From Zestosphaera tikiterensis (GTDB taxonomy: Archaea > Thermoproteota > Thermoprotei_A > Sulfolobales > NBVN01): 32,000 bases of DNA. The first letter of the stretch is position 1, and each line of letters opens with the position of its first letter. Location of the stretch: NCBI GenBank assembly GCA_003056265.1, contig NBVN01000004.1, positions 300,001 to 332,000 on the forward strand. The letters are read 5' to 3'. Shown here piece after piece: positions 151 to 23,501 of this stretch. A program made the translations under genes and the position numbers. The notes under the pieces are model-generated. The model was not told where the DNA came from. It ran no database searches and worked only from the letters and a program-made list of their open reading frames with translations.

Positions 151-302
151 CTCTAAATCATATAGGAAGTTTTCTTCAGTAAGGTATGGAAAGCTCTTAA
201 CCCTGAATCCCTAAATCCTCACATTATTCACGGATATAATCTTAACATCCTTAACTTAATCAACAATAAAAGCTTAACCTACTTTAATTTTTGGGTTTAA
301 AA

Positions 303-1367: not shown

Positions 1368-1371
1368 TGGA

Positions 1372-2511: not shown

Positions 2512-2921
2512 AGCACTCAATCTCTATATTCTGGAGAGATAGGGAAAACCATTACAAGCTGTTAATAACTAAATGCCGGAACTGCGGTAAGTCGTCGTAT
2601 CCGAAACTGAAGAGATGCCCATACTGCGGTTCAACCAATGTCGAGGTGGTTGAGTCTAAAGGGCGTGGTACTTTAGTGAATTACACTATAACGTACTTTA
2701 GAGTGGATGGTAGTGAAGCAATGCTTCCTAAAGTTATTGGCCTTGTAAAGTTAGATGAAGGGGTTAAAGTTCCGGCAGAGATAGTTGATGTACCAGATTT
2801 AAGTAGTTTAAAACCTGGTCTCGAGGTTGAGGCGGTTTTAAGGAAGTATTCAAGTGATGACCCGCATGGTTTAATATATTACGGGCTTAAGTTTATACCG
2901 AGTATAATTAAGAAGCAGTGA
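2508..2921 (+). CDS. DUF35 zinc-ribbon/OB-fold protein (scaffold subunit of the archaeal thiolase/HMGCS complex)
   Basis: CRNCGKSSYPKLKRCPYCGS is a four-Cys zinc ribbon, followed by an OB-fold-like C-terminal half. ATG 2508 overlaps the upstream TGA as ATGA and lies about 8 nt after AGGAGG. The track start is GTG 2499. Confidence 0.85.
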   Translation: MKHSISIFWRDRENHYKLLITKCRNCGKSSYPKLKRCPYCGSTNVEVVESKGRGTLVNYTITYFRVDGSEAMLPKVIGLVKLDEGVKVPAEIVDVPDLSSLKPGLEVEAVLRKYSSDDPHGLIYYGLKFIPSIIKKQ

Positions 2922-7170: not shown

Positions 7171-8125
7171 AACCGTCTACTTAGGTGAGTCTTTAACAAC
7201 GGTTCTCTCAAAGCCTAAAGATGAAGACCTGATAATGTCGTACACAGGAAGTGAAAGTACCCTCTCTGGATGGGTTTTAAGAGATTTAACAATAGATAAA
7301 GCACCGATTTTCGTTGAGAATCCGAAGTGTGTTGAATCGCTAGGGGGACATCCTGTAGAGTTAGACTATCACGTTGAAGTTCTAGGCACTGAAGAAGACT
7401 TAAGCAGGAAGTTTAATGGTGTGGAAAACCTTCGAATGTTTTGGCTACATAGATTCAAATCTAAAGCTTATATACCGCATGAGGGTTGGTCAACAGTATT
7501 TAAAGTTATGAAGTCTAAAATCAAGACTAGTAGGCTTTATACAAGCTTAAGTGAGGTTTCAGTAAGTGATAAAACCGTTAAGTTGGAAGGAGGTGTCTTC
7601 ATAAGCTACGAGAAACTCATTAATACAATACCGCAGAAACTGTTCTTAAGTATAGTTAAAAGTGATGACTTACCTAAAACCCCCTTAAACGATTACGTCC
7701 ACATACCGCTCCACATAACTGCAGTCGTAACTAAAAACACTTCATCTGTTAGGGAGGGTCTTGTTAAAGTATATTCGCTAGGTAAGAAGAGATATATACC
7801 CTCACATGTAGTCCTCTATAAAACATTCGATGTTGAATATACGTTAAATTACGTGATAACTCCATTAACGAGTGAAAGCATTAAAAGCGAGCTTTTATCT
7901 CAAGCGATTTCAACGCTTAAGAAGCTAGGCGTAGAAGTTAAACCTATATACGCTATACGTACTTACTTCGAACCTTATGGGGTTTTAGCGGGTAAACCTG
8001 AAAACGTTGTAAAATCGTTGGAGAAATACGATATAGAGTTCCGCGGCCGTTACGGTATGTGGTCTGAGTTGAGTATATGTGATATCTTAAGAGGTTTTGG
8101 ACTCACCACTACCGAGCTTACGTGA
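7142..8125 (+). CDS. Hypothetical protein, possibly a degenerate FAD/NAD(P)-binding (amine-oxidase/UGM-like) fold
   Basis: 327-aa ORF. The N-terminus [14 protein letters not shown] occupies the position of a beta1-GxGxxG-helix dinucleotide motif, but the glycines are lost. The C-terminal [17 protein letters not shown] resembles the GR-x-G-x-W-x-Y...D motif at the end of UDP-galactopyranose-mutase/amine-oxidase-type flavoproteins. Start is GTG 7142 or ATG 7235. Confidence 0.45.
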
Positions 8126-8944
8126 AATCACTTCCTTAAACTTCTTGAGTTCGTTTTCATCCATTAACCAAAACTCGCCTTCAGACGGGAAAGAACCTTT
8201 TTTAACGTCATCTAAGTACTTCTTTAAAGCGTTAACTACAACTTCACTTAAGTTACTATATCTCCTAGCGAAAGGAGGTGGTTCGGGGTTTACACCCAGT
8301 AAATCGTAAATCACAAGTATTTGACCATCGCACCAAGGACCGGCGCCTATACATATAGTAGGTATTTTAAGCAGTTTAGTTATTTCCTCAGCGACTTGTG
8401 CTGTAGTGTATTCAATGACTATAGAGAAAGCGCCCGCCTCCTCTAATGCTTTAGCTGATTCAACAATCTCTAAAGCGTCATCAACTTTCTTACCCCTAAG
8501 TTTATAACCGCCCAGCTCTAAATACCTCTGCGGGTTTAAACCTACGTGACCCATCACTGGAATTCCAGCTTTAATTAAAGCCTCTACTTTATCAACAACT
8601 TCTAAACCTCCTTCAAGTTTAACCGCGTCAGCACCTAGTTTCAACATCTTACCTGCGTTTCTTACGGCTTCAGACTTACTGACTTCATAACTTAGAAAAG
8701 GCATATCAGCAACGACTAAGGATTTAGGTTTAGCGTTAAGAACGGCTTTTAAGTGGTGAGCGATTTCATTTAAAGTGACGGGTAACGTTGATTTATAACC
8801 CATAACCACCATACCTAAAGAATCCCCAACGAGTATACCGTCAATGCCAGCTAAGTCAGCGAAAAGAGCTTCATAGTATGAATAAGCAGTAACCATAGCT
8901 ATTTTTTCACCAGCTTTCTTCTTCTTAATGAAATCGTAAGGCAT
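8087..8944 (-). CDS. panB: 3-methyl-2-oxobutanoate hydroxymethyltransferase (ketopantoate hydroxymethyltransferase)
   Basis: Motifs [39 protein letters not shown] and [27 protein letters not shown] 8944 (MPYDF...) is preferred because a TATA-like box lies about 30 nt upstream. The track start is GTG 8965. Confidence 0.92.
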
Positions 8945-8970
8945 TAACTTACCTACCAAGCTCACACCAC

Positions 8971-8978
8971 ATATAATA
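8971..8978 (-). promoter_or_regulatory. TATA-like box upstream of panB
   Basis: The minus strand reads TATTATAT, centred about 30 nt upstream of ATG 8944. This spacing fits an archaeal leaderless or short-leader promoter. Confidence 0.3.
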
Positions 8979-9054
8979 GGTGTGTTTAAACTATTTAACT
9001 TACTAGGTTGCTTATGAAGGTTTGTTCAGCAGGATAGGAAACTCATACTGTTGA

Positions 9055-9097
9055 CTGCCTGTTATTGTTCTGCGGTTATTGTTTGATATTTTGATAT
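9055..9097. repeat. Short tandem direct repeats in the panE-panB intergenic region
   Basis: CTGCCTGTTATTGTT (9055-9069) is followed by CTGCGGTTATTGTT (9070-9083). TTGATAT then occurs twice (9083-9089 and 9091-9097). The repeats lie just 3' of the panE stop and about 110-150 nt upstream of the panB start. Confidence 0.5.
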
Positions 9098-9103
9098 CTA
9101 GCT

Positions 9104-10036
9104 TTAGAGTCTATAGTGCTGTCTTTCCTTAGCCTTAACTAACATTAAGAGAGTTTCATTCACGGGCGTTTTAACATTTACCAGCCTGCCCTTCCTCACA
9201 ACCTCACCATTTATGAAGTCCACCTCAGTTTTACGTTTGTTGATGATGTCTTGAAGCATTGAGGAATAGTTATCGCCTGTGGACATGGCTATCTTAACGT
9301 ATTCTTCGTAGGGGTTTGACGGAAGCTTCACACCTAATGCGTTAGCTACCTCAACAACCTCATCCACTATTTTATCTGCTAAGTTGCGGAGGACTTCATC
9401 CTCAACTAAAGCTCTATTCTTAACACCTAAAACAGCTGTTAAAGGGTTTATAGCCGCATTAACAGCTAGCTTTAACCACATATAAGATTTAATGTCGTCA
9501 ACCACCTTAACGTTTAACAAGCTTAACTTGCCGGCTAGGTTACTAAGCACCTTCTTAGGGAGTCCTTCAGATCCAACGTAGCTTTCGGAACCCCCAACCC
9601 ATACGTAGTGGGTTGGTTTCTCTCTATACACGCCGTGAGAAAGCACTAAAGCCGCTACTCTCTCCTTACCTACTTCTTTAACGGCTTGCTCGTAAGCAAA
9701 TAAGCCGTTCTGACACGTAACTATAAAGCCTTTAGAACTTAAACTAGTTCTAACTCTAGAGAGCGCTTCAGGGAAGTCGTAATTCTTAGTCGTTATGAAG
9801 ATTAAATCAAAGACCACTCCCTTAGTAGATATTTCCTCATAACTTGTGTATGAAGCCGCTAAAGTGACTACGTCGCCTACAGGCGTTTGAAGTTTAATAC
9901 CTCCCTCCCTCAAAACGGCTTCCGCCCTCCTAGAGTCTTTAAAGATTAGATATGGTTTCATACCGGCTTTGTTTAACGCGTGCGATAACAACGCACCTAT
10001 AGCTCCCGGACCCACTACAGCTACATTATCTGTCAT
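9104..10036 (-). CDS. panE: 2-dehydropantoate 2-reductase (ketopantoate reductase)
   Basis: Motifs VAVVGPGAIGALL (Rossmann), MWLKLAVNAAINPLTAVLG (catalytic Lys region) and SMLQDIINKRKTEVDFINGEVV. ATG 10036 is preferred. The track start is TTG 10054. Confidence 0.9.
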   Translation of the reverse strand: MTDNVAVVGPGAIGALLSHALNKAGMKPYLIFKDSRRAEAVLREGGIKLQTPVGDVVTLAASYTSYEEISTKGVVFDLIFITTKNYDFPEALSRVRTSLSSKGFIVTCQNGLFAYEQAVKEVGKERVAALVLSHGVYREKPTHYVWVGGSESYVGSEGLPKKVLSNLAGKLSLLNVKVVDDIKSYMWLKLAVNAAINPLTAVLGVKNRALVEDEVLRNLADKIVDEVVEVANALGVKLPSNPYEEYVKIAMSTGDNYSSMLQDIINKRKTEVDFINGEVVRKGRLVNVKTPVNETLLMLVKAKERQHYRL

Positions 10037-10060
10037 GATAAACCCTTCCCACAATCATTA

Positions 10061-10081
10061 CTTAATTAAGCTTTTATTAAT
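10061..10081. promoter_or_regulatory. Divergent promoter region between panE and aglB
   Basis: CTTAATTAAG (10061-10070) lies about 29 nt from panE ATG 10036. TTTTATTAA (10073-10081) lies about 33 nt from aglB ATG 10110. Confidence 0.3.
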
Positions 10082-10109
10082 CCTGCGTAGATCTTCTTAG
10101 GTGTAGATA

Positions 10110-12287
10110 ATGGGTTTAAGAGTTAAGGTAGGGGCATTTGACAAAACTAAGGTGCTTACGGTAATTTCTGTAGTTGCTTTCCTTATAAGTGCTTTTGTAG
10201 GGAGTTACCTAAGGCTTTACCCAGTGATCAATTCGGAGTCGTTGGGTTACGAACCACTACTTAACGAGTTAGATCCCTACTCTGAGTATTGGGTTGCTGA
10301 GAAAATGCTTGAGAAAGGTTTAACATACTATTTTAGCTTAACTAGGGATAACAACGAAACACATATCTTCTGGTATCCGTGGGGTCGTGACTTCGTTAAG
10401 TCCTCCTTACCTATGCTACCCTTCTTTTCTGTACTCACGTACCAGATAGCTAAGCTCTTCAATCAAGGACTAACGCTTTTTGAATGGATGGTTTACCTAC
10501 CCATACTTTTTTACTTAATGTCCTTAACGGGTATCTACTTAAGCGCTAGAGAGTTATGGGGTGATATCCCAGCAGCAACATCAGCCGTTATAACAGCTTT
10601 AATCTTTAACAGTAGGCAAATCGCGGGATTTACGGTTAAGTATTCAGTAGGCCTCGCGTTCTTCTTCATAGCTATTTACTTCTACGTTAGAACTTTAAAA
10701 CATGGTAGGTATTTAGATGCCTTACTTACAGGCGTGTTCCTCGCCGCTACCGCTGCTGGTTGGGCAGGGTTTAACCTACTGCTTGCCGCTATGTTCCTAC
10801 ACACAGTTCTCCTTCCATTAATTAAAGAGAAAATAACGTATAAGGATGTGATCCTGTGGGCTTTAGAAACTCTACCTCTAGCTTTAACCATATCTGTAAC
10901 TCCGTTTTACGGGGTCTTATACTTAATTAAAAGTGTAGGTGTAATTATACCGTTGGGTTTCGCGACTTTAGCTATTGCTTTAGGGGTATTAAAGTTAGCT
11001 TCATCGAGGACTGTCCGCCTTAAATACCCGTTACTCACTAAGTACAAGGTAATTTACCTCCTGCTTATAGCGTTGATCGGCGTCGGAGGCCTTTTAGGCT
11101 TAGTAAGCGGTGCAATAAGCGTTAAGGGTAAGGGCTTAGCGGCTATGGGTTTAAAGGAATTAACGCATGTATTGGTTGGGACTGTTCAGGAATACGCCCC
11201 AGGGGATGCGCAAACATTCATCACAAGTGCTGGGGCGCCGTTAATCGTGTCATTACTTATGCTGATATACTTCGCTTATAGAGCTTTACTTAAGAAAGAC
11301 CAACTTAATCTATTCGTGGGTATTCTACTGCTGGTTATATTCTACGCAACAGTAAATCTCTCCTACTTCTACCCATTGCTTAATTACACAGTGGCTTTAA
11401 CTCAAGCTGGGTTCGTTGCTTTACTGCTTAATCCGTTGATTAAACGCGGTGTTAGGAGGGATTGGTTCACTACGTTGTTAGCGTTGGTACTGCTTATATC
11501 GTATGTTGGAGTTACGTTAGCTCAAGGCGCCTTACTTTGGGTTAATGCTTACAGATCGCAAACACCGTTAATACTTGATTCAGGACTTGGTGTTGGAGTT
11601 GAAGCCCCTGCGTGGTTAGACACCCTCAACTGGTTAAGGACTAACACACCTAAGGATAGTGTGGTCGTGTCTTGGTGGGACTACGGTTATTGGATATCGG
11701 TTGTTGGTGAGAGGGCCTCCGTTGCGGATGGTGCTACTTTAAACACCACGCAGATTGAGCTTCTAGCTAAAGCTTTAACTAGTGATGAGCGTGAAGCTTA
11801 TAAGATATTCACGCAGGACTTCAGGATACCTCCGGAGAAGCTTTACGTAGTCGTATATGATGTAGTCTTAGTGAGTGATTACTACTTAGCTGTCTTCCCA
11901 GGGCCTTTAGCGTTTCAAAACGCTTACTTGGGAGCCGACGCTGCTAAAGGTATTTCAGCTATTTACAGGATAGCTAATAAAACACCACCAACGGCTGTGG
12001 CGCAAGTAAGTCAATACGTGGCTTACAGCGTTCCTGACTGGACAAGCAACGAGTTGAGGAACGCTACGCTTTACAAGATTTTACTAGACTCGATATATGA
12101 AGTCTTCGGTAGGGAAGGCTATACTGTAAGATTCCTCTACACCTCAGGTGGTTACTGGCCTGAAATACCTAGACCTAAAATGGAGGTGTTTAAACCGGCT
12201 TACATAGCCGTTAGTAAGATGTTTCAAAACCCACCGGTATATGTCATTGTTGCCGTTTATAAGGTAGGGGACTTAAGTAATGCCTGA
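10110..12287 (+). CDS. aglB: Archaeal oligosaccharyltransferase AglB (STT3 family)
   Basis: 725 aa. The N-terminal two-thirds is multi-pass hydrophobic, with an acidic first-loop motif (ELDPYSEYW). The hallmark WWDYGYW motif is present (VVVSWWDYGYWISV). Confidence 0.9.
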   Translation: MGLRVKVGAFDKTKVLTVISVVAFLISAFVGSYLRLYPVINSESLGYEPLLNELDPYSEYWVAEKMLEKGLTYYFSLTRDNNETHIFWYPWGRDFVKSSLPMLPFFSVLTYQIAKLFNQGLTLFEWMVYLPILFYLMSLTGIYLSARELWGDIPAATSAVITALIFNSRQIAGFTVKYSVGLAFFFIAIYFYVRTLKHGRYLDALLTGVFLAATAAGWAGFNLLLAAMFLHTVLLPLIKEKITYKDVILWALETLPLALTISVTPFYGVLYLIKSVGVIIPLGFATLAIALGVLKLASSRTVRLKYPLLTKYKVIYLLLIALIGVGGLLGLVSGAISVKGKGLAAMGLKELTHVLVGTVQEYAPGDAQTFITSAGAPLIVSLLMLIYFAYRALLKKDQLNLFVGILLLVIFYATVNLSYFYPLLNYTVALTQAGFVALLLNPLIKRGVRRDWFTTLLALVLLISYVGVTLAQGALLWVNAYRSQTPLILDSGLGVGVEAPAWLDTLNWLRTNTPKDSVVVSWWDYGYWISVVGERASVADGATLNTTQIELLAKALTSDEREAYKIFTQDFRIPPEKLYVVVYDVVLVSDYYLAVFPGPLAFQNAYLGADAAKGISAIYRIANKTPPTAVAQVSQYVAYSVPDWTSNELRNATLYKILLDSIYEVFGREGYTVRFLYTSGGYWPEIPRPKMEVFKPAYIAVSKMFQNPPVYVIVAVYKVGDLSNA

Positions 12288-13527
12288 GGTGTGCGGTAAT
12301 TACGTGGTTTTAAACCCTTACGTATGGCTTAAGAACGCCTGCGTGGTTTTTAAGGAGAGGATAGAGGATATTTACCCGTTAGGTTCTGAGGTGGGGGAAG
12401 GCCTTAAAAACACTGTAGTTACGCATGGCTTAGCTTCAACACATACGCATTTAGGGCTGTATCAAATACGTTTAAGTGTTTCCGAAGGCTTACCGCTTGA
12501 TGAGTGGGTTAAGCTTAGGGCGTGGCCCTGGGAAAAGTTTTTAAGGAGTAACCCGCAACTTACGTATTATGTTGCTTTAAACGCTTTGAAAGAGCTTCTT
12601 AAATCCGGTGTTACGTTAGTTGCTGACATGCACTTTAACGAGTTTTGGGTTTATAAGGCGTTAATTGACGTTGGAGTTAAAGGGGATTTAAGCGTAGCTA
12701 TAATGGACGGCGGCGTTTTCGAGAATTTCGAAGAGGGGCTTGAGGAGAACTTAGATCTTTCTAGGAGGGCTTCCGATCCTAAGGTAAGGGTTAGGTTAGG
12801 CCCGTGCACACCTAGGCTTCTAACTCCACTACAGTATAAGGAAGTTGTAGAGACAGCTGAAGAGTTAGGTTTAGGGATACACACCCACATAGCTGAAGTT
12901 CTAGATGATGAGTTATGGTTAAAAAGCAGGTATGGAATGAGCCTTAGAGATTTCGCGCATTACGTAGGTTTAGGTAATGTAGATACCTTAGCTGCTCACG
13001 TTGTTTGGGGTGAAAGCCTTATAGAATTCCTTTCTTCGAAAGGGGTTAAAGTTTCCCACCCACCTAGGTCAAACACCTTATTAGGTGATGGTAGAGCACC
13101 GATTAAAAGCTATTTAAAGAATGGCGTAAGAGTAAGCTTAGGTGTGGACGTAGCTCCAACATATAGCTTAGTTGACGACATGAAATCCTACCTAGTTCTT
13201 CATTACGAAGGGGAAGGCATACCTCAAACACATGAAGCTTTCAAGATCGCGACGGTTAACGGCTATCAAGACCTAGGCTTCGGTTCCGGTGAGTTAACAC
13301 TTAAAGAACCTGCTGATGTAGTTGTGTGGGAATTACCTAAGGACGTTAGTAAGGTTGGGTTAAACCCCATATCCAGCATTGTTTGGGGCGGTGCTAAAGT
13401 TAAGGAGGTTTATGTTAATGGTGTTAAAGTGTTTGAAGAAGGTAATTTAATTAATGTTCATGTGTCGGCAGACTCCATCAACGCTAAAATCGAGGAATAT
13501 CTAAAGGACTTTAAGCGTGAGGATTAA
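12280..13527 (+). CDS. Metal-dependent amidohydrolase, nucleoside/MTA-SAH deaminase (chlorohydrolase) family
   Basis: Motifs STHTHLG (HxH), GIHTHIAEVLDDE, LAAHVVW and LGVDVAP. 415 aa. Exact substrate unknown. Confidence 0.75.
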   Translation: MPEVCGNYVVLNPYVWLKNACVVFKERIEDIYPLGSEVGEGLKNTVVTHGLASTHTHLGLYQIRLSVSEGLPLDEWVKLRAWPWEKFLRSNPQLTYYVALNALKELLKSGVTLVADMHFNEFWVYKALIDVGVKGDLSVAIMDGGVFENFEEGLEENLDLSRRASDPKVRVRLGPCTPRLLTPLQYKEVVETAEELGLGIHTHIAEVLDDELWLKSRYGMSLRDFAHYVGLGNVDTLAAHVVWGESLIEFLSSKGVKVSHPPRSNTLLGDGRAPIKSYLKNGVRVSLGVDVAPTYSLVDDMKSYLVLHYEGEGIPQTHEAFKIATVNGYQDLGFGSGELTLKEPADVVVWELPKDVSKVGLNPISSIVWGGAKVKEVYVNGVKVFEEGNLINVHVSADSINAKIEEYLKDFKRED

Positions 13528-14234
13528 TACTTAGTGGATTCGAGTTTGCTACGTTGTTTTAAGATAAGTGTTTTTATGCGGGAGCTTATATAGACAGTTA
13601 CGTTACGTATCTCAGACAATAGAGCTTTTACAGAACCTTTTAATCCATGTGTTATATGTTCGTCAACAACTTTAGCCCAATTGATGTTTAATATATAGTA
13701 CGCTATTACTAAAGTCACTAATACCATGGCTGGTATCACATAACTGTTCACACCCTCCAGTTCCTGAGCGAATAAACTACCGTAGAAAACAGTAATAGAC
13801 GTTAGCACTAACTTACCCATTAAAACAGCTATGAAATACGCTGGAAGCGAGTATTTAACCATCCCAGTAGGTAAGTATAGCACATCATCTGGGAGGGGAA
13901 GTGCCGCAAACACGAAAATCGCTATAAACAGAGATTTACTAGCCAACTTCCTAAACAACTCTATGTTTTCCTTTGTATGCTCGCTTACTTTTAAGGTTAA
14001 AGCCCTGCCAACGGAGTAGATTATCAACTTACCTAAAGTAGCCCCTAAAGCAGACGAAGCAATTATAGCTACTTTAGCGAGCGGGTCTTTATAATACGTA
14101 GCGTAGCCTATTATAGCCAGCAAATACGGAAGTGAGACGAAAGGTATTGAGTTACTTATTAAACTAATGATGAAAGGCCCTAACGGAGGCGCTATCAACA
14201 CATGCAGTAGCCTAGCCCAAATCATGAACGTCAT
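13524..14234 (-). CDS. DedA/VTT-domain-like membrane protein
   Basis: Multi-pass hydrophobic 236-aa ORF. FAALPLPDDVLYLPTGMVKYSLPAYFIAVLMGKL resembles the P-x-P-[DE]...G...G core of DedA/SNARE-associated proteins. Confidence 0.45.
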   Translation of the reverse strand: MTFMIWARLLHVLIAPPLGPFIISLISNSIPFVSLPYLLAIIGYATYYKDPLAKVAIIASSALGATLGKLIIYSVGRALTLKVSEHTKENIELFRKLASKSLFIAIFVFAALPLPDDVLYLPTGMVKYSLPAYFIAVLMGKLVLTSITVFYGSLFAQELEGVNSYVIPAMVLVTLVIAYYILNINWAKVVDEHITHGLKGSVKALLSEIRNVTVYISSRIKTLILKQRSKLESTKY

Positions 14235-14359
14235 CCACGCTTAACAGACTTTTAACCCCGCTATTTCTTTTAATTGTTACTTAATTAAACGCATTTAAGC
14301 TTTATTAAACGGGGCTTAATCCACCTAGATTGCTTAAGGTCTTCAAACCAATCGATGAC

Positions 14360-14914
14360 TTAAGTAAGAGGTTCCTCAACTATAGGTACGTTCTCCCCTA
14401 CTAAAGCACTTCTACCTAACGGGTCTTCTAATATTAGAGTAAACTTCAGTTTAGCGTTCATAGCATCAACGATCTTAACCACTACGTTATGACATTCATG
14501 GCTTTCGTTAAAGCATTCTGACGGCATATTATCTAAGATCTTTTCTAAAACACCCTCAACAGTTGTTATATATCCTTCAGCTGCAGGCCCAGGAACTACC
14601 TCAATACCTAACTCCGGTATTTCAATTCTAGCTGTTGAGGACTTAATAACTAAAGCCCTTAACTCCCTATCCGTGTTTACACTTATCTTCAACCTCTTAG
14701 CTTTCCCAACCCCCGCTAAACCCACGTTAGACTTTCTATAACCGCAAACACCGCATTTCCATACCTCCATAACTACCTCACCCGCTAAAGGAACTACGTA
14801 CGTGTAGACACTATATTTAAGAGTCTTACCACCACATACAGGACATTCAACTTCGTCTTCGTAGATGGGCTTTAACTCCTCCACAGCTTCCCACCGCCAT
14901 ATAATATTTACCAT
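14360..14914 (-). CDS. ZPR1-type zinc-finger protein
   Basis: ECPVCGGKTLKY..VVPLAGEVVMEVWKCGVCGYRKSNV is the C4 ZPR1 zinc ribbon, followed by the A-domain-like beta-rich region. Confidence 0.75.
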   Translation of the reverse strand: MVNIIWRWEAVEELKPIYEDEVECPVCGGKTLKYSVYTYVVPLAGEVVMEVWKCGVCGYRKSNVGLAGVGKAKRLKISVNTDRELRALVIKSSTARIEIPELGIEVVPGPAAEGYITTVEGVLEKILDNMPSECFNESHECHNVVVKIVDAMNAKLKFTLILEDPLGRSALVGENVPIVEEPLT

Positions 14915-15192
14915 AGCAGGTTATTCTATTTAGCGATTTCTACAATACATTATATACTATTCCCTTCCACCTCTGAGTTATTTGACTTTGTATCGGGTTT
15001 AAAGCCTTCAAGACCTCTTAAGACTGAGATCAGTTAGTGATGTCTAAGGGTAGGGGGCTTAGAACCGACGGAAACATAGGTGACTCGTACTTAATTATTA
15101 CTACTTATTTTTAAATATTCCTACGTCAAATAATAACTTGAAAAAACAATAGAAAAGAAAAAGACTGAAAGTAAGGTTTTGGGTGAGTTAGG

Positions 15193-15438
15193 TTGTGGTT
15201 TGCTTTTTTGACTTCGCCGTTGGGTCCTAACTTACGAATTCTTAAGAAGCTCGTCTTAGCTAATGTTCACGAACGAAGCGAGTTTGAAGCCTTGAAGAGT
15301 AGGGTATCTGGGGTTTTAGATCTTACGGAGGTCTCAGTAGAGGATGTTGATATGCTTTACTTAGTTAGTTCTGTAGATCCGGATACGGCTGATTTGATAA
15401 AGTTAGGTTTTAAAGGGTTTATAATAGCTGAGCTATAG
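15193..15438 (+). CDS. Hypothetical small protein (81 aa, TTG start)
   Basis: ORF only. No motif recognised and the start codon is non-ATG. It lies upstream of hsp20 on the same strand. Whether it is coding is uncertain. Confidence 0.25.
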   Translation: MWFAFLTSPLGPNLRILKKLVLANVHERSEFEALKSRVSGVLDLTEVSVEDVDMLYLVSSVDPDTADLIKLGFKGFIIAEL

Positions 15439-15492
15439 CTGAGCTTAAGTGAATTTTAAAGCTCTGAAAAAATCTTTAAATGGGGATTAAGG

Positions 15493-16029
15493 ATGTCCGA
15501 CAGAAGAAGGAGGAAGTCGATATTCGATATCTTCGATGAACTCTTTAGAGAGTTGGATGAGGAGATGCGTGAATTCCTAGAGGAGAGCGAGAGATTTTGG
15601 CGTATGAGACCTGAAGACTTTGAAGAACTACAACGTAAGGGTTTAGGACCCTATGTTTACGGCTTTAGAATACATATAGGGCCAGACGGTAAAATCAAAG
15701 TAGACGAGTTTGGCAACGTTAGGAGGGAGGGACCTAAGCCTAAGATAGCTGAGGAGATAGAACCTTTAGTTGATGTTATAGATGAGGGAGATAAGGTTAG
15801 GATCATAGCTGAAGTTCCAGGTGTTGAAAAGGATAAGATAAAGCTTAAAGCCGTTGGTAAAGAACTCATTATCCAAGCAAGCAACGGTAAGAAATACTAT
15901 AAGAAAGTTCAACTACCTGATGAGGTAGATGTTAAAACAGCTAAGGCGCAGTATAGAAACGGCGTCTTAGAAGTAGAGTTAAAGAAGTCAAAGAAGGAAT
16001 CTGGAGAGTATGAAATAAAAATTGAATAA
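15493..16029 (+). CDS. hsp20: Small heat-shock protein (Hsp20/alpha-crystallin family) with a charged N-terminal extension
   Basis: Alpha-crystallin domain: PLVDVIDEGDKVRIIAEVPGVEKDKIKLKAVGKELIIQA ... AKAQYRNGVLEVELKK. Confidence 0.88.
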   Translation: MSDRRRRKSIFDIFDELFRELDEEMREFLEESERFWRMRPEDFEELQRKGLGPYVYGFRIHIGPDGKIKVDEFGNVRREGPKPKIAEEIEPLVDVIDEGDKVRIIAEVPGVEKDKIKLKAVGKELIIQASNGKKYYKKVQLPDEVDVKTAKAQYRNGVLEVELKKSKKESGEYEIKIE

Positions 16030-16050
16030 ATAAATACGTGGAGATAGGAA

Positions 16051-16863
16051 TTGAGTGCCTGCGAGGATAGGGAAGAAAAAGATAAAAACGTTTTTAAAGC
16101 TTTAATACCTAAGAACCACCCACGTTATGAATCCCTACTTTTAAGGGAGAAGATAATCGAAGGTCTTAATGAAGGCTATGTTGCTCAAGCTGGGTTAATA
16201 GCTCATGGGAGGGGGGAATGCTTTGATTACTTAATAGGTGAGAAGACCATAGACCCAGCTTTAAAGGCTATAGACGCTGCTGCCGCTGCTTTAATCTTAG
16301 CTAAGCATCCAGTGATTTCAGTAAACGGTAACGTAGCTGCTTTAGTCCCTAAGGAAATAGTTGAATTAGCTAAGAAAGTCAACGCTAAGTTAGAAGTTAA
16401 TTTATTCTATAGAACCGAAGAAAGAGTTAGAAAAATAGCTGATATACTTAGAAGATGCGGTGCTGACGAAGTTTTAGGGGTTGATGACGCTACGGCTTCT
16501 ATCCCAGAGTTATTTAGTGAGAGGAGGAAAGTCAGCCCTAAAGGAATATATATAGCAGATGTTGTTTTAGTTCCTTTAGAGGATGGGGATAGGACGGAAG
16601 CTTTAAGGAAGATGGGGAAAACCGTAATAGCTATAGACCTTAATCCGTTATCAAGAACCTCTAGATCAGCAAACATAACTATAGTGGATAACGTGGTTAG
16701 AGCCATACCTAAACTTACTGAACGCGTCGAAGAACTTAAAAAACTTGATAGGGAGGTGTTGCGGGACATATTAAGGAACTACGACAACGATAGGGTTTTA
16801 GCTGAAGTCATAACATACATAATGAATAGATTGAAAGACCTAAGTAAGGAGTTAACTAAGTAA
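16051..16863 (+). CDS. 4-phosphopantoate--beta-alanine ligase (archaeal phosphopantothenate synthetase)
   Basis: [16 protein letters not shown] and the overall 270-aa pattern match the archaeal PPS family. It lies close to pantoate kinase and CoaBC. TTG start, with no early in-frame ATG. Confidence 0.8.
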
Positions 16864-16895
16864 AGCCATGCTTAAATTAACGTAATCCCCATCCC

Positions 16896-17219
16896 TTAAT
16901 ATATTAAAACTCCTTCGCAGAAGTCGTTATCGTCATGTAGAGTTAAACCTAAACTACTTACCTCCTGAGTTTTAGGGCTTTCATTACCTAAAGCTGAAAG
17001 TATTAAGTCCGTTAACTCTTCAGGCGTTAACTTCTTATTTACTGTAAACTCTATGTCGTTAATAATCAACGAAACCCTAGAGTCTTTCGAATAGTATGGT
17101 ATTACGTAAACCTCAACCCCATATTCATGAAATAGCTTCTGAGCCGTATACCACGTTAACTTAAGGAGTTCCTCACCCAACAAGCTTCCATTAGTAACTA
17201 CTATCACGTCAACAGGCAC
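16896..17219 (-). CDS. Hypothetical small protein, thioredoxin-like beta-alpha-beta pattern without CxxC (paralogue of 22643-22927)
   Basis: 107 aa with a GTG start. TATA-like TTAAAAACAATATT lies about 35 nt upstream. It shares W23 and E-x-G-[VI]-E-[VI]-x-V-I (residues 32-40) with the 94-aa ORF at 22643-22927. Confidence 0.5.
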   Translation of the reverse strand: MPVDVIVVTNGSLLGEELLKLTWYTAQKLFHEYGVEVYVIPYYSKDSRVSLIINDIEFTVNKKLTPEELTDLILSALGNESPKTQEVSSLGLTLHDDNDFCEGVLIY

Positions 17220-17596
17220 TTTCTAACCCATGTAAAACCTGGTCTCAATATTGTTTTTAAGAACTCACTCTTAATTAAGATTGGATCTTAACGCTATCGT
17301 AAACATGTAGGATTTTTAATGTTTGCGCAGGATTAAGTAAAGACCTTAGCTCTTAGTAATGAGTGAAACTTTAGATAGTAGCTTTATATAGCAAGCCATC
17401 CTTTCTATACCAGAAAGTAGGGTTTGCTCTGTTGTTTAAACTTAGTGAGTAAGCAGGTATGGTAAACCCTTAAATGTTCTCGATTAATTGAGGAGAGTTA
17501 GCTCCCGTAGAGTAATTAAGAGGTAAATAACCGTTATGAGCCTAGTTATGACAGACACGAAATGAAGACATAGCTAAGACAAACGAGATTTTTACT

Positions 17597-18490
17597 TCAT
17601 GAACTAAATAGAGTTCCATGTCGGCATATTTTAAACACGCCTAGAGGTTCACTAATCTTCTTTAAAACTTCGTAGGTTTCGTTGATGTAGTTCGCCTGAG
17701 TTAATACTGCGATAGTGCCTTTCTTTACGAAATACCCTAAGACCGCACCTTTGCTTAGGAGAGTTCGTAGGGAATCATCCACTTTATCTTTTAATGTATT
17801 TTCCAGCATCCCCGTCTTAACGCTAAACTCATGCGCTTGCTCTATGAACGTATCCAACGAAGGATTTCTTAAAAACTTTAAATAAGACTCTAGCCCATAC
17901 TTCCGTATTTTACCGGCATAGAGCTTAAGCATTTCAGGCGTTGTTAAGCCTTTCCTAACCAATCCAACACATACAGCCACATTTTCCTTTACAGGTACGA
18001 CGTCAACCTCACCTACCCCAGGAGGGCCCGGTTTTAAACGTATGACTAAACCCCCGCCAATTAATTCAGCTATAACGTCGCCAAGGCCTGTTCTTAAAGT
18101 TACCTCCGCCATGTGAGCCAATACCCCAACTTTTTTCAACGTTATAGGTATGGCTCTTTTAATTAGAGCTGATGTGGCTAACGTAATAGATAGAGCAGCG
18201 CTTAAACCAAGTCCCTGACCTAAACCTACGGGACTCGCTACAAAAGCTCCTAAATCCTTAACTCCTGCTAAGCTCTCCATAACTTGCTTTAAATCCTGAC
18301 CTACCTCAACCAAGTTTAACTTAAGAGTTTTTTCGCTGAAGTTTTTAGAAGTCACCACAGGTTCGAGGGTTAACCCAACGCCTAGGGAACCTGTGGTTAT
18401 GGGGTCTGAAGTATAGTGTGGTATCCAAAACCCCGTTATGTGGAGAGGTATTTTAAGCTCTCTTACCATATGCGAGTTCATCTCTAACAA
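17597..18490 (-). CDS. Pantoate kinase (GHMP-kinase family, archaeal CoA pathway)
   Basis: GHMP motif PVGLGQGLGLSAALSITLA and N-terminal PLHITGFWIP. It overlaps the 3' end of coaBC, so the two are probably co-transcribed. Alternative in-frame ATG starts lie at 18481 and 18469. Confidence 0.8.
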   Translation of the reverse strand: MLEMNSHMVRELKIPLHITGFWIPHYTSDPITTGSLGVGLTLEPVVTSKNFSEKTLKLNLVEVGQDLKQVMESLAGVKDLGAFVASPVGLGQGLGLSAALSITLATSALIKRAIPITLKKVGVLAHMAEVTLRTGLGDVIAELIGGGLVIRLKPGPPGVGEVDVVPVKENVAVCVGLVRKGLTTPEMLKLYAGKIRKYGLESYLKFLRNPSLDTFIEQAHEFSVKTGMLENTLKDKVDDSLRTLLSKGAVLGYFVKKGTIAVLTQANYINETYEVLKKISEPLGVFKICRHGTLFSS

Positions 18491-19712
18491 TGTCTAATAT
18501 CCTCCGTGCTACAACCTCCTTCAAAGACTTAGGTATGTGTTCTTTAAAGCCGTTCTTACCGACCACCACTACCTCATTATAATCTGAGGCGAAGCCTATC
18601 TCAGGGTTGCTAACATCGTTAGCTACTATGTAATCAAACCCTCTGCTAATTAACTTATGTTGTGCTAACTCTATGAGCTTATTTAAATCGTTAAACACGG
18701 TTTCGGCAGCAAAACCTATAAGCAGGCCTTTGTAAACTTCCCTAACCTTAGCGGAGATCTTAGGGGTGGTTTCAAGAACTATTTGAAGTTCGTTTATGTC
18801 TGACTTTATCTTCTCCTTATAAACAGTCCTAAACCTAAAGTCTGAAGGCGCTGCCGCCATTATCACAGCGTCATATTTACGACTTCTAACCTCATTTAAA
18901 ACAGCTTCCAACATCTCTTCAGTTGATTCAACAGCTATGTTCCTAGTGTAATACGGTTTAGACACAGATAAAGGTCCGTGAATTAAAGTCACGTTAGCCC
19001 CTCTGAAGTAAGCTTCTCTAGCTATAGCAACACCCATCTTACCAGAGCTTGAATTCGTTATATATCTAACGCTATCTAACCTTTCACGCGTAGGTCCTGA
19101 AGTCACTAAGATGTTTAACCCACGTAGATCCTTACCCCTTAAAGTGACCGCTTCAACCGCTGCTATGACGTCCTCCGCATCTGGGAATTTCGCACGGCCC
19201 TCAACTAAGTTAGGCCATAAAACCGTAACGCCTAAGCTCGTTAGAAACTCAAGTGCTTTAACTATTGGTGGGGACTTCCATAGGCCTTCATGCATAGTAG
19301 GAACTAATATTAACGGCTTTCCTAAACCAAGCATGTTAACCGCTGTTAACGTTACTGGATTATCGCCGATGCCTGCCGCTATCTTAGCTATGGCGTCAGC
19401 ACTAGCTGGAGCAACTGTAAACGAACTGCCTTCAAAACTTAACGCAACATGTCCTGTCTCACCTTTAAACTCCGTGAAAACCTTAGTTCCAGTAGCCCAC
19501 TCAATAAGCGTTGGGTTTATAAGTTCTGTTGCTGCTTTACTCATCACAACGTATACGTCGGCACCTCTCCTAATAAGCTCTCTCATGATGTCGATTACTC
19601 TATATATAGAGACGGAACCCGTCAAACCAAAAACTAGCTTAACCCCTTCAAGATGCTTAGATTTAGTGCTTTTAATCTCGTCGGCAGGATGTCGTAAAGG
19701 TTCCTTCAGCAT
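18453..19712 (-). CDS. coaBC: Bifunctional phosphopantothenoylcysteine decarboxylase / phosphopantothenate--cysteine ligase
   Basis: CoaC half: GLTGSVSIYRV, APASADAIAKIAAGIGDNP. CoaB half: VTSGPTRERLDSVRYITNSSSGKMG, MAAAPSDFRF, KIKSD, VANDV. Confidence 0.92.
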   Translation of the reverse strand: MLKEPLRHPADEIKSTKSKHLEGVKLVFGLTGSVSIYRVIDIMRELIRRGADVYVVMSKAATELINPTLIEWATGTKVFTEFKGETGHVALSFEGSSFTVAPASADAIAKIAAGIGDNPVTLTAVNMLGLGKPLILVPTMHEGLWKSPPIVKALEFLTSLGVTVLWPNLVEGRAKFPDAEDVIAAVEAVTLRGKDLRGLNILVTSGPTRERLDSVRYITNSSSGKMGVAIAREAYFRGANVTLIHGPLSVSKPYYTRNIAVESTEEMLEAVLNEVRSRKYDAVIMAAAPSDFRFRTVYKEKIKSDINELQIVLETTPKISAKVREVYKGLLIGFAAETVFNDLNKLIELAQHKLISRGFDYIVANDVSNPEIGFASDYNEVVVVGKNGFKEHIPKSLKEVVARRILDIVRDELAYGKRA

Positions 19713-19853: not shown

Positions 19854-20333
19854 ATGGCGGGATTTACGATAAGGAAAGCCAGGCTTGAAGACCTCCCTCA
19901 AGTCATCAACATTAATTTGATTTCTTTAAGGGAACACTACCCTGAAGATTTTTGGAGGCAACACCTTGAGATGTGGGGGGAGGCGTTCTTAGTTGCTGAA
20001 GCAGACTCTAAAATTGTTGGTTACGTCATGAGTAGAGTGGAGAGGGGTTTTGGCTACTTGCGTAAATCGCTATATAAGAAGCTAGGTCACATAGTAAGCA
20101 TAGCGGTGATGCCTGAATATAGAGGACGTGGGATAGGCTACGCTTTAATGACGGAAGCTTTAAAAAAGCTTAAGGAGGTTTACGATGTTAAGGAAGTTTA
20201 CTTAGAAGTTAGAGTAAGTAACGAGCCAGCCATAAGACTTTATGAAAAATTAGGTTTTAAGAAAGTACAGAGGATTAAATACTACTATCTCGACGGTGAA
20301 GACGCGTGGTTAATGTCTATAGAGTTAAGTTAA
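19854..20333 (+). CDS. GNAT N-acetyltransferase (RimI / archaeal Ard1-type N-alpha-acetyltransferase)
   Basis: IAVMPEYRGRGIGYALM (acetyl-CoA binding R-x-x-G-x-G) and NEPAIRLYEKLGF. 159 aa. Confidence 0.8.
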   Translation: MAGFTIRKARLEDLPQVININLISLREHYPEDFWRQHLEMWGEAFLVAEADSKIVGYVMSRVERGFGYLRKSLYKKLGHIVSIAVMPEYRGRGIGYALMTEALKKLKEVYDVKEVYLEVRVSNEPAIRLYEKLGFKKVQRIKYYYLDGEDAWLMSIELS

Positions 20334-20883
20334 GCGATGTGGTAAAGACCTTCCTCTCGTTTAAGATTATTGCTGTAGACGTGTTTATCATGCCTACGTA
20401 GTCTTCAAGACCTAAAGATATGAAGTAAGAGGGCTTCACCTCATATATTACTTGAGTGATTTCCGGTAATCCAACCCTTACATTAAGACTTCTTAAGCGA
20501 TCTCCAAACCCTTTAGGTGGGAAGTAAGACGTTATTATAGCCTTAGATTTCCCTAAGGTAGTGTGGAGTTGGATTAAACGGGCTATGTTTTGATACGTTT
20601 CAATACCGCCAATGCCTCCTAAGCTTACATTACCTAAATCTACGAACGTACCATCAAGTAAGATACCTAATGAACGACTTAACTTAGATATGTATATATC
20701 GTCGAACTTACTCGTAACTAAGTATACAGGTTCTTTAAATGCTTTAATTAATTCAGGCAGGGGTATTTTCGGCCCACTTAAAAGCAACGTTAAATCGTAG
20801 TTCGTGTCATCTTCAGTAAGTTTCATTAAGTCTTTCCTAGACTTAACACGTCTACCTAAAACAACCCTTACCAACATATTCAA
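20317..20883 (-). CDS. Metallophosphoesterase-like protein with all metal-ligand motifs substituted (probable pseudoenzyme)
   Basis: It threads onto the calcineurin-like phosphoesterase template. LLLSGPK stands for D-x-H, YLVTSKFDD for GNHD, SLGGIGG is present, AIITSYFPPKGFGD stands for H-x-PP-x-G-x-x-D, and FISLGLED for GHxH. It overlaps the upstream CitG-like ORF by 32 nt. Confidence 0.45.
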   Translation of the reverse strand: MNMLVRVVLGRRVKSRKDLMKLTEDDTNYDLTLLLSGPKIPLPELIKAFKEPVYLVTSKFDDIYISKLSRSLGILLDGTFVDLGNVSLGGIGGIETYQNIARLIQLHTTLGKSKAIITSYFPPKGFGDRLRSLNVRVGLPEITQVIYEVKPSYFISLGLEDYVGMINTSTAIILNERKVFTTSLNLTL

Positions 20884-21775
20884 ACACCTTATACATGGCT
20901 ACAGCAGTAGCTACGATATCTGAGGTGCTTCCTGGGTTTACGCCTTGACGTCTAACCCACAGATCTAACTCTTCTTTTTCAGAGGCGTTGAAAAAACTCC
21001 ATTTAGAAGCTATACTCTTAAAGAATACGGCGGTACTTAAATTCCTAGCTTTAACGATTAACGTATCTAAATACTTCGAGAGCATGTAGGTATGTACGTC
21101 TCTCAAAACTTCATAGAAATCCTCTACGGGACTTAACTCAGCGATTCTTTCGTATGCTTCAAGGGTTTTCCTATATCCGTTGATGAGTTCATACGTAACC
21201 ATGTCCGTATAGCTTGAGTTTAAGAAAACGTCCCACAACGTTAACTTACTTAAATTGCTGTAGTCATTAATTGTTACTGAAGGTATCCTACCTACATACT
21301 TACCTAGGTGTTTGATAGAGGCTTTCTTTAACGCTTCATAAAAATCTACTGGATCCTCATCCTTCAGCTCCTTAATTAAATAGGGCGAGTATGTCTTAAC
21401 TAAATCAACGGGTGATTGAATTGGCTTACCATCTCTTAACATGAGGGCGGTCATGAAAGTTAATGGTATAGTAAGTATTAAAAAACCTAATGAAGTGTTT
21501 GTCTTTATGTATGGGTGAGCCATTAAATCTGAGATAATATTTCTTAAGTTACGACCTAATTCTAACTTACTGCTTTTTAAGAACTTAATGAGCATCTCAA
21601 CGTAATGTTTCTTAAGCGTTAACGAGGTGTATATAAACTGGTTTATGTTTAAGTCTTTAACGCCTTTAAGGTTGCTTACGGTACTTATTTTGTTCGGTGC
21701 TAAAGCTTCAATAAGTATAGATGCCGATATTAAATCAGCTATTACATATATTGATTTAGTGTTAACATTAATCAC
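20852..21775 (-). CDS. CitG-family (triphosphoribosyl-dephospho-CoA synthase-like) protein
   Basis: EALAPNKISTVSN..KDLNINQFIYTS, KTNTSLGFLIL, DTLIVKARN and VNPGSTSDIVA line up with the CitG motifs SPKPGLVD..HKDM..F..SA, NTHKGSIF, DTNVASRGG and SPGGSADLL. Several conserved residues differ. Confidence 0.65.
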   Translation of the reverse strand: MINVNTKSIYVIADLISASILIEALAPNKISTVSNLKGVKDLNINQFIYTSLTLKKHYVEMLIKFLKSSKLELGRNLRNIISDLMAHPYIKTNTSLGFLILTIPLTFMTALMLRDGKPIQSPVDLVKTYSPYLIKELKDEDPVDFYEALKKASIKHLGKYVGRIPSVTINDYSNLSKLTLWDVFLNSSYTDMVTYELINGYRKTLEAYERIAELSPVEDFYEVLRDVHTYMLSKYLDTLIVKARNLSTAVFFKSIASKWSFFNASEKEELDLWVRRQGVNPGSTSDIVATAVAMYKVFEYVGKGCFR

Positions 21776-22490
21776 CTTTTAAGTTCATAACGACGTAGAT
21801 CTTCTCTACGCTATCACCTATTAACTCACGCCAAGCATTACCTAAAGCTATTATAGAGAAGAGACCCACCGTTAAAGCACCGCTCATTCTAACGAGCTTT
21901 ATTAAAGCCAGCGATGTCCTCCCAGTACTTAATAAATCATCAACTATAAGTACGCGATCATTAACTCCTAAGGCCGTTGTTGGCAGGAATAGATGCATAA
22001 TGGCTGGAGGGTCTCTAGCTAGGTAGCTTGTTTGATAGTAGTCTTTAACCCCTACTTCAGGTCTTCTTCTCGCCACAACTAACTTAGCGTTTAAGACTTC
22101 CGCCACCGCCACTCCTAAAGGTATGCCATCAACTTCAACTGTAGCTACGGCTGTTATGTTGTACTTCTGAAACTCCCTAAGAGCTATGAAGGACAATATC
22201 TTAAGCATTGGTATGTCGTAGATAATCCTCGACAAGTTATATATGTTTTTACCCGCTTCAACTATCCTCTCAGAAAGCAGCTTCTCAACTACGGTTGGGT
22301 TAAGTAGTTTCTCAACAAGCTCAGCTGCCCTCTCATGACTAGGCCTTATCCTCTTATTTATATATCTCCAAAGACCCGGAGCTGGAAGGCCTGTAAGCTT
22401 CTCAAGATCTCTATACTTCATTACTTTCTTGTAAGCTTTAAGTAACTCTACAGCTATAGTCCTTACATCTACGTCCATATTGACTACCAT
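21768..22490 (-). CDS. Winged-HTH + type-I phosphoribosyltransferase-domain protein (PurR/GfcR-like putative regulator)
   Basis: N-terminal HTH-like segment YRDLEKLTGLPAPGLWRYINK. PRPP-binding loop RVLIVDDLLSTGRTS. It overlaps the downstream CitG-like ORF by 8 nt. Confidence 0.75.
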   Translation of the reverse strand: MVVNMDVDVRTIAVELLKAYKKVMKYRDLEKLTGLPAPGLWRYINKRIRPSHERAAELVEKLLNPTVVEKLLSERIVEAGKNIYNLSRIIYDIPMLKILSFIALREFQKYNITAVATVEVDGIPLGVAVAEVLNAKLVVARRRPEVGVKDYYQTSYLARDPPAIMHLFLPTTALGVNDRVLIVDDLLSTGRTSLALIKLVRMSGALTVGLFSIIALGNAWRELIGDSVEKIYVVMNLKGD

Positions 22491-22642
22491 TACTAACTAC
22501 CTTTTCAAGTTTATGTTAATTTAGAGTTAATAAATTTACATTAAGCTATGTAAAAAGTAGTTCACACATATATAACGTTTTTCTGATAACAGCATCTTAA
22601 AGGAAAAACCGTTATTCGTTTTAAAGTTAGTTTGAGAGTGCG

Positions 22643-22927
22643 CTATACCTCCTCTATACCTCCAACTACTTTCTCTATGAAGTCAGGGTCTGAAACCTCA
22701 TCCACAAGTACCGAGGCTATCTTCCTAACTATGTTTTGAATGCTGTCCCTTAAGTCGATTATCTCGTCTAAAGCTATGAGTCGAGGCTCTCCATTATCTG
22801 AAATAACTATCACAGATATCTCTATACCTACTTCCTCCATTAAGTAGTTTTTTAAACGCCATATCTTCCTTAGATACTCATGGTTTGAGGTCGGAGGTAT
22901 TGCCGCCACTATAGTTAGGTGTTTCAA
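22643..22927 (-). CDS. Hypothetical small protein, paralogue of 16896-17219
   Basis: 94 aa with a TTG start. It shares W23 and EEVGIEISVI with EYGVEVYVI of the 107-aa ORF. No Cys. Confidence 0.45.
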   Translation of the reverse strand: MKHLTIVAAIPPTSNHEYLRKIWRLKNYLMEEVGIEISVIVISDNGEPRLIALDEIIDLRDSIQNIVRKIASVLVDEVSDPDFIEKVVGGIEEV

Positions 22928-23039: not shown

Positions 23040-23501
23040 ATGGGGGTGAGGATTGAGTTGAGACTCAATTCAGTTAGCGGTAAAAGTAAGAAGGTTAAAG
23101 TGATTTACGAAGACGAGGATATAGTAGTCGTTAGAGCTCCTGACGACGAGGAACTTAGCGAGTTAGTTATAAACACCATTAAGAACGCTGGAAGACCTCT
23201 AACTTGGAAGGAACTAAGGAAAGAGTTAAGCGGCTTAGTAGGTGAGGATAGACTTAGGAAGGCCGTAATTAAGCTTATAGAGCAAGACGTCGTTGTTGAG
23301 ATGATTGACGGCACCTTCGGACTCAAAGGTATGGAGTTGACTTACGTCCCTAGGAAGTTGAAGAAGAGGGTTAGGCCTTTAGTTCCTAGGAAATTTAGAG
23401 TTAGGTGGGGTCCGTTAATAGAGGCTAGAGGCTCTATATCCGCTGCGATACAGTATTTAAGGGAAACCAGAGCTAAAGAAAAACCTAGAGCAGTTAATTA
23501 A
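23040..23501 (+). CDS. Hypothetical winged-helix-like protein with a basic C-terminal region
   Basis: INTIKNAGRPLTWKELRKELSGLVGEDRLRKAVIKLIEQDVVVEM looks like a wHTH. The C-terminus is rich in K/R (PRKLKKRVRPLVPRKFRVRW). Confidence 0.5.
   Translation: MGVRIELRLNSVSGKSKKVKVIYEDEDIVVVRAPDDEELSELVINTIKNAGRPLTWKELRKELSGLVGEDRLRKAVIKLIEQDVVVEMIDGTFGLKGMELTYVPRKLKKRVRPLVPRKFRVRWGPLIEARGSISAAIQYLRETRAKEKPRAVN

Follow-up and report, generated by a model that had tools for sequence, protein, structure and literature searches.

The only proven reaction of a CitG-family protein is the synthesis of triphosphoribosyl-dephospho-coenzyme A (CoA) by bacterial CitG and MdcB (EC 2.4.2.52; PF01874). CitG turns the beta-N-riboside of ATP into an alpha-O-riboside triphosphate, after which CitX or MdcG, proteins of nucleotidyltransferase fold, release pyrophosphate and form a phosphodiester. 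Archaea also have CitG proteins, presumably those known as COG1767 and as 'Orf7' of methylotroph tetrahydromethanopterin (H4MPT) clusters. Here we analyse an operon of Zestosphaera tikiterensis that places such a protein between a helix-turn-helix (HTH) phosphoribosyltransferase (PRTase) and a calcineurin-fold protein without metal ligands. It lies in a 32,000-nucleotide stretch of DNA (contig C2, 300001-332000), the whole of which was analysed and is called the window below; the genome, 93%-complete, has 1,808,184 bp in 19 contigs. A sequence-only reading of the window had described three overlapping open reading frames (ORFs) on the minus strand (21768-22490, 20852-21775 and 20317-20883), and the sequence bears out both the frames and their overlaps:

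21768..22490, minus strand: ORF1, 240 amino acids (aa), start alternatively Met5 (22478); Cro/C1-type HTH plus type I PRTase, PRK08558-like
20852..21775, minus strand: ORF2, 307 aa, GTG start; divergent archaeal CitG-family protein
20317..20877, minus strand: ORF3, 186 aa from ATG 20877 (188 aa from TTG 20883); Icc-like calcineurin-fold pseudo-phosphoesterase

Our proposal, which as a whole falls a little short of an even chance, is that this operon joins a ribosyltransferase acting on the tail of a modified folate, a pseudo-phosphoesterase subunit and a general HTH-PRT regulator, and that it was assembled within one family from three older archaeal genes. Taken alone, a role of CitG in a modified-folate step is reasonably probable.

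An archaeal CitG in a conserved operon

The assignment of ORF2 to the CitG family is upheld by a PF01874 match of 86.9 bits (cut-off 27) over model positions 1-283 of 284, and a profile search finds no other CitG in this genome. Its structure model, with a predicted local distance difference test score (pLDDT) of 93, has one significant Foldseek match, the uncharacterised Archaeoglobus fulgidus CitG 3h9p, with a template modelling (TM) score of 0.79 by target. ORF2 shares with bacterial CitG/MdcB its family, its fold and the invariant polar residues. Indeed, E23, K29, N93, G97, D191, D237, N280, G282 and D286 are kept in 29/29 operon CitG copies, and position 242 is K or R in all of them. It differs from the bacterial enzymes in that the Pro-Gly that follows K29 in the first motif is mostly replaced in these copies, in its predicted pseudo-phosphoesterase subunit, and in giving no match at E<0.1 to the equivalog models TIGR03125, TIGR03132, PRK10096 and PRK01237. 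On the CitG/MdcB equivalog models, the scores of canonical archaeal CitGs do not exceed 65 bits (cut-offs 272-477). With the A. fulgidus protein ORF2 has in common the profile, the fold, a carrier-less context and a set of co-occurring genes, but it is set apart by its operon with HTH-PRTase and phosphoesterase, by an unlinked nucleotidyltransferase and by its place in a long-branch clade of operon CitG copies (29 rows, support 98/95) that is limited to one family; the tree is midpoint-rooted, and no direction of change is claimed. Judged by its residues, ORF2 probably works as an ATP:acceptor triphosphoribosyl transferase. The idea of a dead CitG was rejected on the invariant residues kept and on a ratio of nonsynonymous to synonymous substitution rates (dN/dS) of 0.11-0.20 among intact pairs. 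No fused CitG form turned up among 8000 longer candidates, in itself weak evidence. In some genomes of the same family there is also a third CitG-like paralogue, a very divergent one (PF01874 31.8 bits; L078:3211-4050, L079:3224-4081, L080:3625-4488), which lies convergent to another metallophosphoesterase (PF00149 52.4 bits).

ORF2 also starts with GTG in the closest relative, for which reason a start at the out-of-frame ATG 21768 with a frameshift was rejected. ORF3 more probably begins at ATG 20877 than at TTG 20883; this start gives the 186 aa found in databases and has a ribosome-binding-like site 7 nucleotides (nt) upstream. The overlap of ORF2 with ORF3 is therefore 26 nt. The junctions between the ORFs are overlapping or near-abutting in relatives too.

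Word-indexed protein searches gave close relatives numbering only 2 and 3, and homologues were therefore sought by genome searches, which covered 37 genomes of the organism's family (f1), 24 genomes drawn from 12 further families in its order and 151 genomes of the phylum. The trio is contiguous in 28/37 f1 genomes, one of them with a broken CitG, and is therefore more than a chance arrangement, in keeping with the operon proposed earlier. Among the remaining f1 genomes, three are cut by contig ends, one has ORF3 moved away, and five, all of genus g5, have no detected CitG; ORF1 abuts ORF3 in four of these five. The complete trio occurs in none of the 24 genomes of the 12 other families. What those families have is pairs: ORF1-phosphoesterase in f4, ORF1-CitG in f6, CitG-phosphoesterase in f13 and, divergently, in one f12 genome, nucleotidyltransferase-CitG in f9 and f13, and nucleotidyltransferase-phosphoesterase in f10. 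The second-family case, f13 (L042, L044), has the operon DUF1464-nucleotidyltransferase-CitG-phosphoesterase.

Ligand loss in ORF3 and its predicted complex with CitG

Icc-like metallophosphoesterases (Metallophos_2/_3), such as aq_1956 (2yvt) and TT1561 (1uf3), have the same fold as ORF3. Its calcineurin-like fold (Atlas TM 0.84; AF2 model pLDDT 96.7) gives Foldseek matches to these two structures at E 2e-7 to 1e-6. A search among 50% clusters returned 48 matches, one of them spurious, and 21/47 homologues match Metallophos_2. The replacement of metal-ligand motifs II-V had been read from the sequence; motif I is lost as well, leaving 0/7 ligands, with G8, R10, G35, K57, Y118, G156 and E158 at the seven positions. 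No binuclear metal hydrolysis is therefore expected, and ORF3 would be, from its residues, a member of the calcineurin fold but not an active metallophosphoesterase. Orthologues in seven other families, in contrast, keep 7/7 ligands, and within f1 the count is 6/7 in three genera, 3-4/7 in four and 0-1/7 in six, this one included. The ligand-less ORF3 is still under selection: its dN/dS is 0.12-0.25, and it is therefore maintained by purifying selection. A decaying pseudogene was rejected on this ratio and on a frame that is open in all relatives examined.

All 16 sampled members of the f1 clade with 0-1 ligands adjoin CitG. A model of ORF2 with ORF3 (ESMFold2) scored 0.61, compared with 0.00 for the best of three controls; the mark for such scores is reached by 58/80 solved complexes and 2/110 mismatched pairs, and is only roughly valid with our own alignments. 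The runs share at least 88% of contacts, with a partner pLDDT of at least 89. In the modelled interface, ORF3 residues 57-61, 90-103, 119 and 137-142, the former active-site loops, lie on CitG 185-202 and 235-253, adjoining the conserved residues D191, D237 and K242. On this modelling, binding between ORF2 and ORF3 has a somewhat better than even chance. Among solved structures, the one relative of ORF2 that turned up is 3h9p, in which all chains are CitG. Operon CitGs are also more hydrophobic than stand-alone ones in the columns of the interface (+0.19 versus +0.01, permutation p 0.004), but this test comes from the same alignment as the complex model and is not independent of it. Two observations weigh against the proposal. 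The hydrophobic patch also occurs in f6 CitGs, in genomes without a clear ORF3 orthologue. In g5, G003, G024 and f4 the phosphoesterase persists although no working CitG adjoins it, and the f4 protein is also ligand-less and adjoins ORF1.

The three genes might also share nothing but inherited synteny. CitG would then work alone, probably in modified-folate synthesis, ORF1 and ORF3 would have unrelated jobs, and the shared transcript would derive from an old neighbourhood of endonuclease IV, an HTH gene, a thioredoxin-like gene, ORF1, phosphoesterase, Ard1 and coaBC. The restriction to pairs outside f1, the presence of ORF1 irrespective of CitG, and the tolerance of CitG loss in g5 and of the split in G024 are consistent with such a history, but the complex prediction that passes its controls, the unbroken adjacency in the 0-1-ligand clade and the recurrence of CitG beside the phosphoesterase in f13 speak against it, and we regard synteny alone as unlikely.

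The cofactor served by archaeal CitG

A Pol-beta nucleotidyltransferase family is present in 65/65 phylum genomes with CitG and in 75/151 overall, neither gene being found in 76; the two lie within 2.5 kb of each other in at least 23/65 genomes, from Sulfolobales and other orders of the phylum. CitG is present in 31/33 genomes with the TIGR00284 protein, which resembles dihydropteroate synthase (DHPS), and in 38/40 with DUF1464. Canonical archaeal CitGs have MptG-, MptE- and DHPS-like, flavoprotein, DUF1464 and DUF447 genes as neighbours (L028, L036, L038, L114; seven DUF447 loci), and in 30 loci from other orders CitG repeatedly adjoins genes of the pterin pathway and the nucleotidyltransferase. 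In this genome, a DUF447-MptE-MptG-like cluster lies on C14, TIGR00284 (over cut-off) on C2, DUF1464 on C8, and an unlinked Pol-beta nucleotidyltransferase on C14 at 525585-526628 (L095). Beside its CoA hypothesis, the sequence-only reading had allowed for a module of ribosyl transfer that serves some other ribosylated cofactor, an alternative that is supported here. In genome G003, the operon CitG (L045:4817-5714) is a pseudogene with a frameshift and a stop and a canonical CitG sits in an MptG cluster, which suggests that the operon and pterin-cluster copies are redundant there; the sister genome G015 retains both, and G003 is thus one case.

The uncharacterised Pol-beta nucleotidyltransferase family has a second paralogue here (C14:544402-545133). 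The family was found in 60/61 relatives, mostly as two copies, and tandem pairs of its genes are frequent next to CitG in other orders. A hydrophobic gene that resembles the S component of an energy-coupling factor (ECF) transporter often adjoins CitG and nucleotidyltransferase in those orders (L098, L102-L106, L112, L119, L123); the label was read by eye, one NCBIfam scan was blank, and the protein may import a cofactor precursor. Strict coupling of CitG with the nucleotidyltransferase within f1 was tried as a rule and failed, g5 having the latter without a detected CitG.

The tail of methanopterin is an alpha-ribofuranosyl phosphate diester, and type I PRTases yield beta-ribosides. CitG with a nucleotidyltransferase would therefore fit the tail, whereas a PRTase would not. 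For the steps that build the tail of methanopterin-type cofactors, we know of no assigned enzymes. A folate analogue with methanopterin features has been reported from Sulfolobales (PMC3261824). In our proposal, ORF2 would take the 5'-triphosphoribosyl group from ATP, release adenine and, with an acceptor other than CoA, form an alpha-riboside at the ribitol end of a modified-folate precursor of methanopterin type. In the next step the unlinked nucleotidyltransferase would split off pyrophosphate and make the phosphodiester tail, by analogy with what CitX and MdcG do for bacterial CitG; comparison with CitX/MdcG and with solved structures gave no sequence-level link, so the analogy is one of fold class only. 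The ancestor of ORF3 would have been an active Icc-like phosphoesterase, probably trimming phosphates in the same pathway. With all metal ligands lost, ORF3 would have been kept as a non-catalytic subunit, predicted to dock its dead active-site face on CitG beside D191, D237 and K242. ORF1, a general archaeal HTH-PRTase that probably senses a phospho-sugar or phosphoribosyl pyrophosphate (PRPP), would lead the transcript and may regulate it, which is the weakest step. Of this scheme, the identities, the conservation, the loss of ligands, the selection and the co-occurrence are observed, and the substrate, the product, the binding and the regulation are inferred. A broader version must be called doubtful: that archaeal CitG and the Pol-beta nucleotidyltransferase are the enzymes of the alpha-ribose-phosphodiester tail, working through ATP and not a second PRPP, and that the CitG of this family is heteromeric with a phosphoesterase that went in steps from an enzyme with seven ligands to a purely structural or regulatory subunit with none.

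A number of points count against the folate link. The co-occurrence counts were taken among kin; they are not independent tests, and their independence is overstated. TIGR00284 is missing in 35/65 CitG genomes, the MptG-like gene of this genome scores below cut-off (79 versus 113.5 bits), and no CitG was found in genus g5, where the MptG-like gene, the nucleotidyltransferase and ORF3 are retained. Haloferax has CitG by profile and uses tetrahydrofolate (PMC8305020). According to a review, the second ribose of methanopterin derives from PRPP (PMC3334880). Our literature search found nothing that links CitG to methanopterin, and it found no biochemistry on any archaeal CitG.

The sequence-only reading had placed the operon about 0.6 kb from CoA genes and had named a CoA intermediate as a possible substrate. 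The distance to coaBC, 605 bp, is correct, but an intervening gene had been overlooked, and PoK and PPS are 1.8 and 3.5 kb away:

19854..20333, plus strand: Ard1/RimI-type N-acetyltransferase gene (TIGR01575 102 bits, cut-off 86.4), convergent with the operon and outside it
18453-19712, minus strand: coaBC (TIGR00521 342 bits), a context gene
17597-18490, minus strand: pantoate kinase (PoK; pantoate-kinase models matched below cut-off), a context gene

The Ard1/RimI gene overlaps the end of ORF3 by 17 nt, occupies the 605 bp between the operon and coaBC, and adjoins ORF3 orthologues in several families. The phosphoesterase-Ard1-coaBC block is kept where CitG has been lost (genus g5, L070) or is located elsewhere (L053, L059). 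The CoA linkage is therefore independent of CitG; it follows the Ard1 N-acetyltransferase gene and ORF3. The block predates the trio, and coaBC and pantoate kinase (17597..19712) are inherited neighbours of its ORF3-Ard1 part. Moreover, neither coaBC, PoK nor PPS was seen within 1.5 kb of CitG in the 30 loci from other orders. As had been noted for the window, citrate lyase and malonate decarboxylase partners are missing: acyl carrier protein (ACP), CitF, MdcA, CitX and MdcG are unmatched in the 93%-complete genome, in which no carrier, lyase or decarboxylase was found, and positive-control genomes were matched for each of the ACP, CitF/MdcA and CitX/MdcG families. Among the control genomes, four archaeal ones have CitG and none has ACP, which occurs in E. 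coli only; in the phylum, the ACP profile matches 0/151 genomes and CitG is found in 65/151. A carrier-less CitG is therefore the archaeal norm and no peculiarity of this genome.

A CoA substrate was rejected as the leading interpretation, the linkage being independent of CitG and carrier and partners lacking, and the CoA reading of the operon is probably wrong. ORF2 might still make triphosphoribosyl-dephospho-CoA or another CoA derivative, which the nucleotidyltransferase would attach to an unrecognised archaeal carrier. Such a model would match the one proven CitG reaction, the invariant residues, the closeness of CoA genes in f1 and f13 and the co-occurring partner of CitX-like fold, but it is improbable in view of the missing carrier and partners, the unmatched equivalogs, the persistence of the CoA linkage without CitG, and neighbours in other orders that belong to the pterin pathway and not to CoA synthesis. 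Thus, the domain identities, the operon and the missing carrier of the sequence-only reading have stood, and its CoA substrate has not.

ORF1, its promoter and the flanking genes

PurR of Bacillus and GfcR of Haloferax are characterised HTH-PRT proteins that act as regulators, GfcR without PRT activity (PMC10838023). ORF1 shares their HTH + PRT architecture with an intact PRPP loop, and its PRTase domain with an N-terminal HTH, as first described, is matched by PF00156 at 36.5 bits (E 3.8e-9). The winged-helix label was rejected: 8/22 homologues match HTH_3 and 1/22 a winged HTH, so that the HTH is of Cro/C1 type, in contrast to the winged helix PurR_N of PurR. The PurR model TIGR01743 gave 70.5 bits (cut-off 258.7), and PRK02277, which we take to be GfcR, gave 27.6 bits (cut-off 115). 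The nearest curated model is that of the archaeal family PRK08558, whose score of 173.8 bits over positions 7-224 of 238 is just under its cut-off of 184. The acidic pair of the PRPP loop and its G-x-T are nearly invariant, and dN/dS is 0.00-0.09. The ORF1 family is present in 119/151 phylum genomes, many of them without CitG; in three families, ORF1 is in 41/41 genomes and CitG was found in none. With a distribution so much wider than that of CitG, ORF1 is therefore not a dedicated CitG regulator. Its sequence makes a ligand-sensing regulator probable, which could still have enzyme activity. This genome holds a second HTH-PRTase paralogue (C14:577947-578672, L096) with a substituted PRPP loop, adjoining polyamine-pathway-like genes.

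ORF1 could instead be a working enzyme. As an adenine phosphoribosyltransferase it might salvage the adenine released by CitG, or it might itself carry out a PRPP-dependent ribosylation in which CitG and ORF3 have accessory roles; the beta-ribosides of type I PRTases would not match the alpha tail ribose of methanopterin. This idea draws on the annotation of PRK08558 as adenine phosphoribosyltransferase, the intact PRPP loop, the very low dN/dS and the second PRPP of the literature scheme (PMC3334880), but in view of the conserved HTH at the N-terminus, the regulatory role of the characterised PurR and GfcR (PMC10838023) and the uncoupling of the ORF1 family from CitG we consider it highly improbable.

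Upstream of ORF1 lie two candidate control elements:

22513..22554, minus strand: candidate promoter region, with a TATA-like box at 22527-22534 and a downstream 7-nt element at 22513-22519
22535-22554, minus strand: inverted repeat of 7 bp with a 6-nt spacer, directly upstream of the TATA-like box; candidate operator for ORF1

The TATA box and downstream element recur in several relatives, and the region is likely the archaeal promoter of the operon. The inverted repeat is a weak candidate operator: the exact repeat occurs once in the genome and is only partly conserved, and its chance occurrence in 150 AT-rich bp is not unlikely. A regulon search with the promoter element gave eight matches and nothing coherent, and a sigma-70 scan, whose model is not suited to archaea, gave fewer sites than shuffled sequences did.

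The neighbourhood conserved in f1 extends upstream of the operon to a 94-aa gene (22643-22927, minus strand) and a 153-aa HTH-like gene (23040-23501, plus strand), which match no Pfam family and have counterparts in f3, f4 and f11. In several relatives a PA14-domain gene lies between the phosphoesterase and Ard1 (L045:6352-7077, L050:3660-4418, L053:4225-5001); it was not found in this genome. Elsewhere in the window (291-2921 and 8087-19712), a trio of hydroxymethylglutaryl-CoA (HMG-CoA) synthase, thiolase and DUF35 genes and, besides, PanB/PanE genes were recognised by eye. These genes make up, with PPS, PoK and coaBC, an ordinary archaeal CoA and mevalonate neighbourhood.

The trio itself occurs in a single family of archaea, most of them uncultured, and its genes are each common on their own, which limits the surprise. 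What the operon adds is a series of decay from enzyme to pseudoenzyme (7, 6, 3-4 and 0 ligands) in a protein for which a specific binding partner is predicted. More broadly, annotations of archaeal CitG without a carrier routinely give it the bacterial function, the partners of which it lacks, and its co-occurrence with the nucleotidyltransferase opens the way to a direct test in Sulfolobus, which is genetically tractable.

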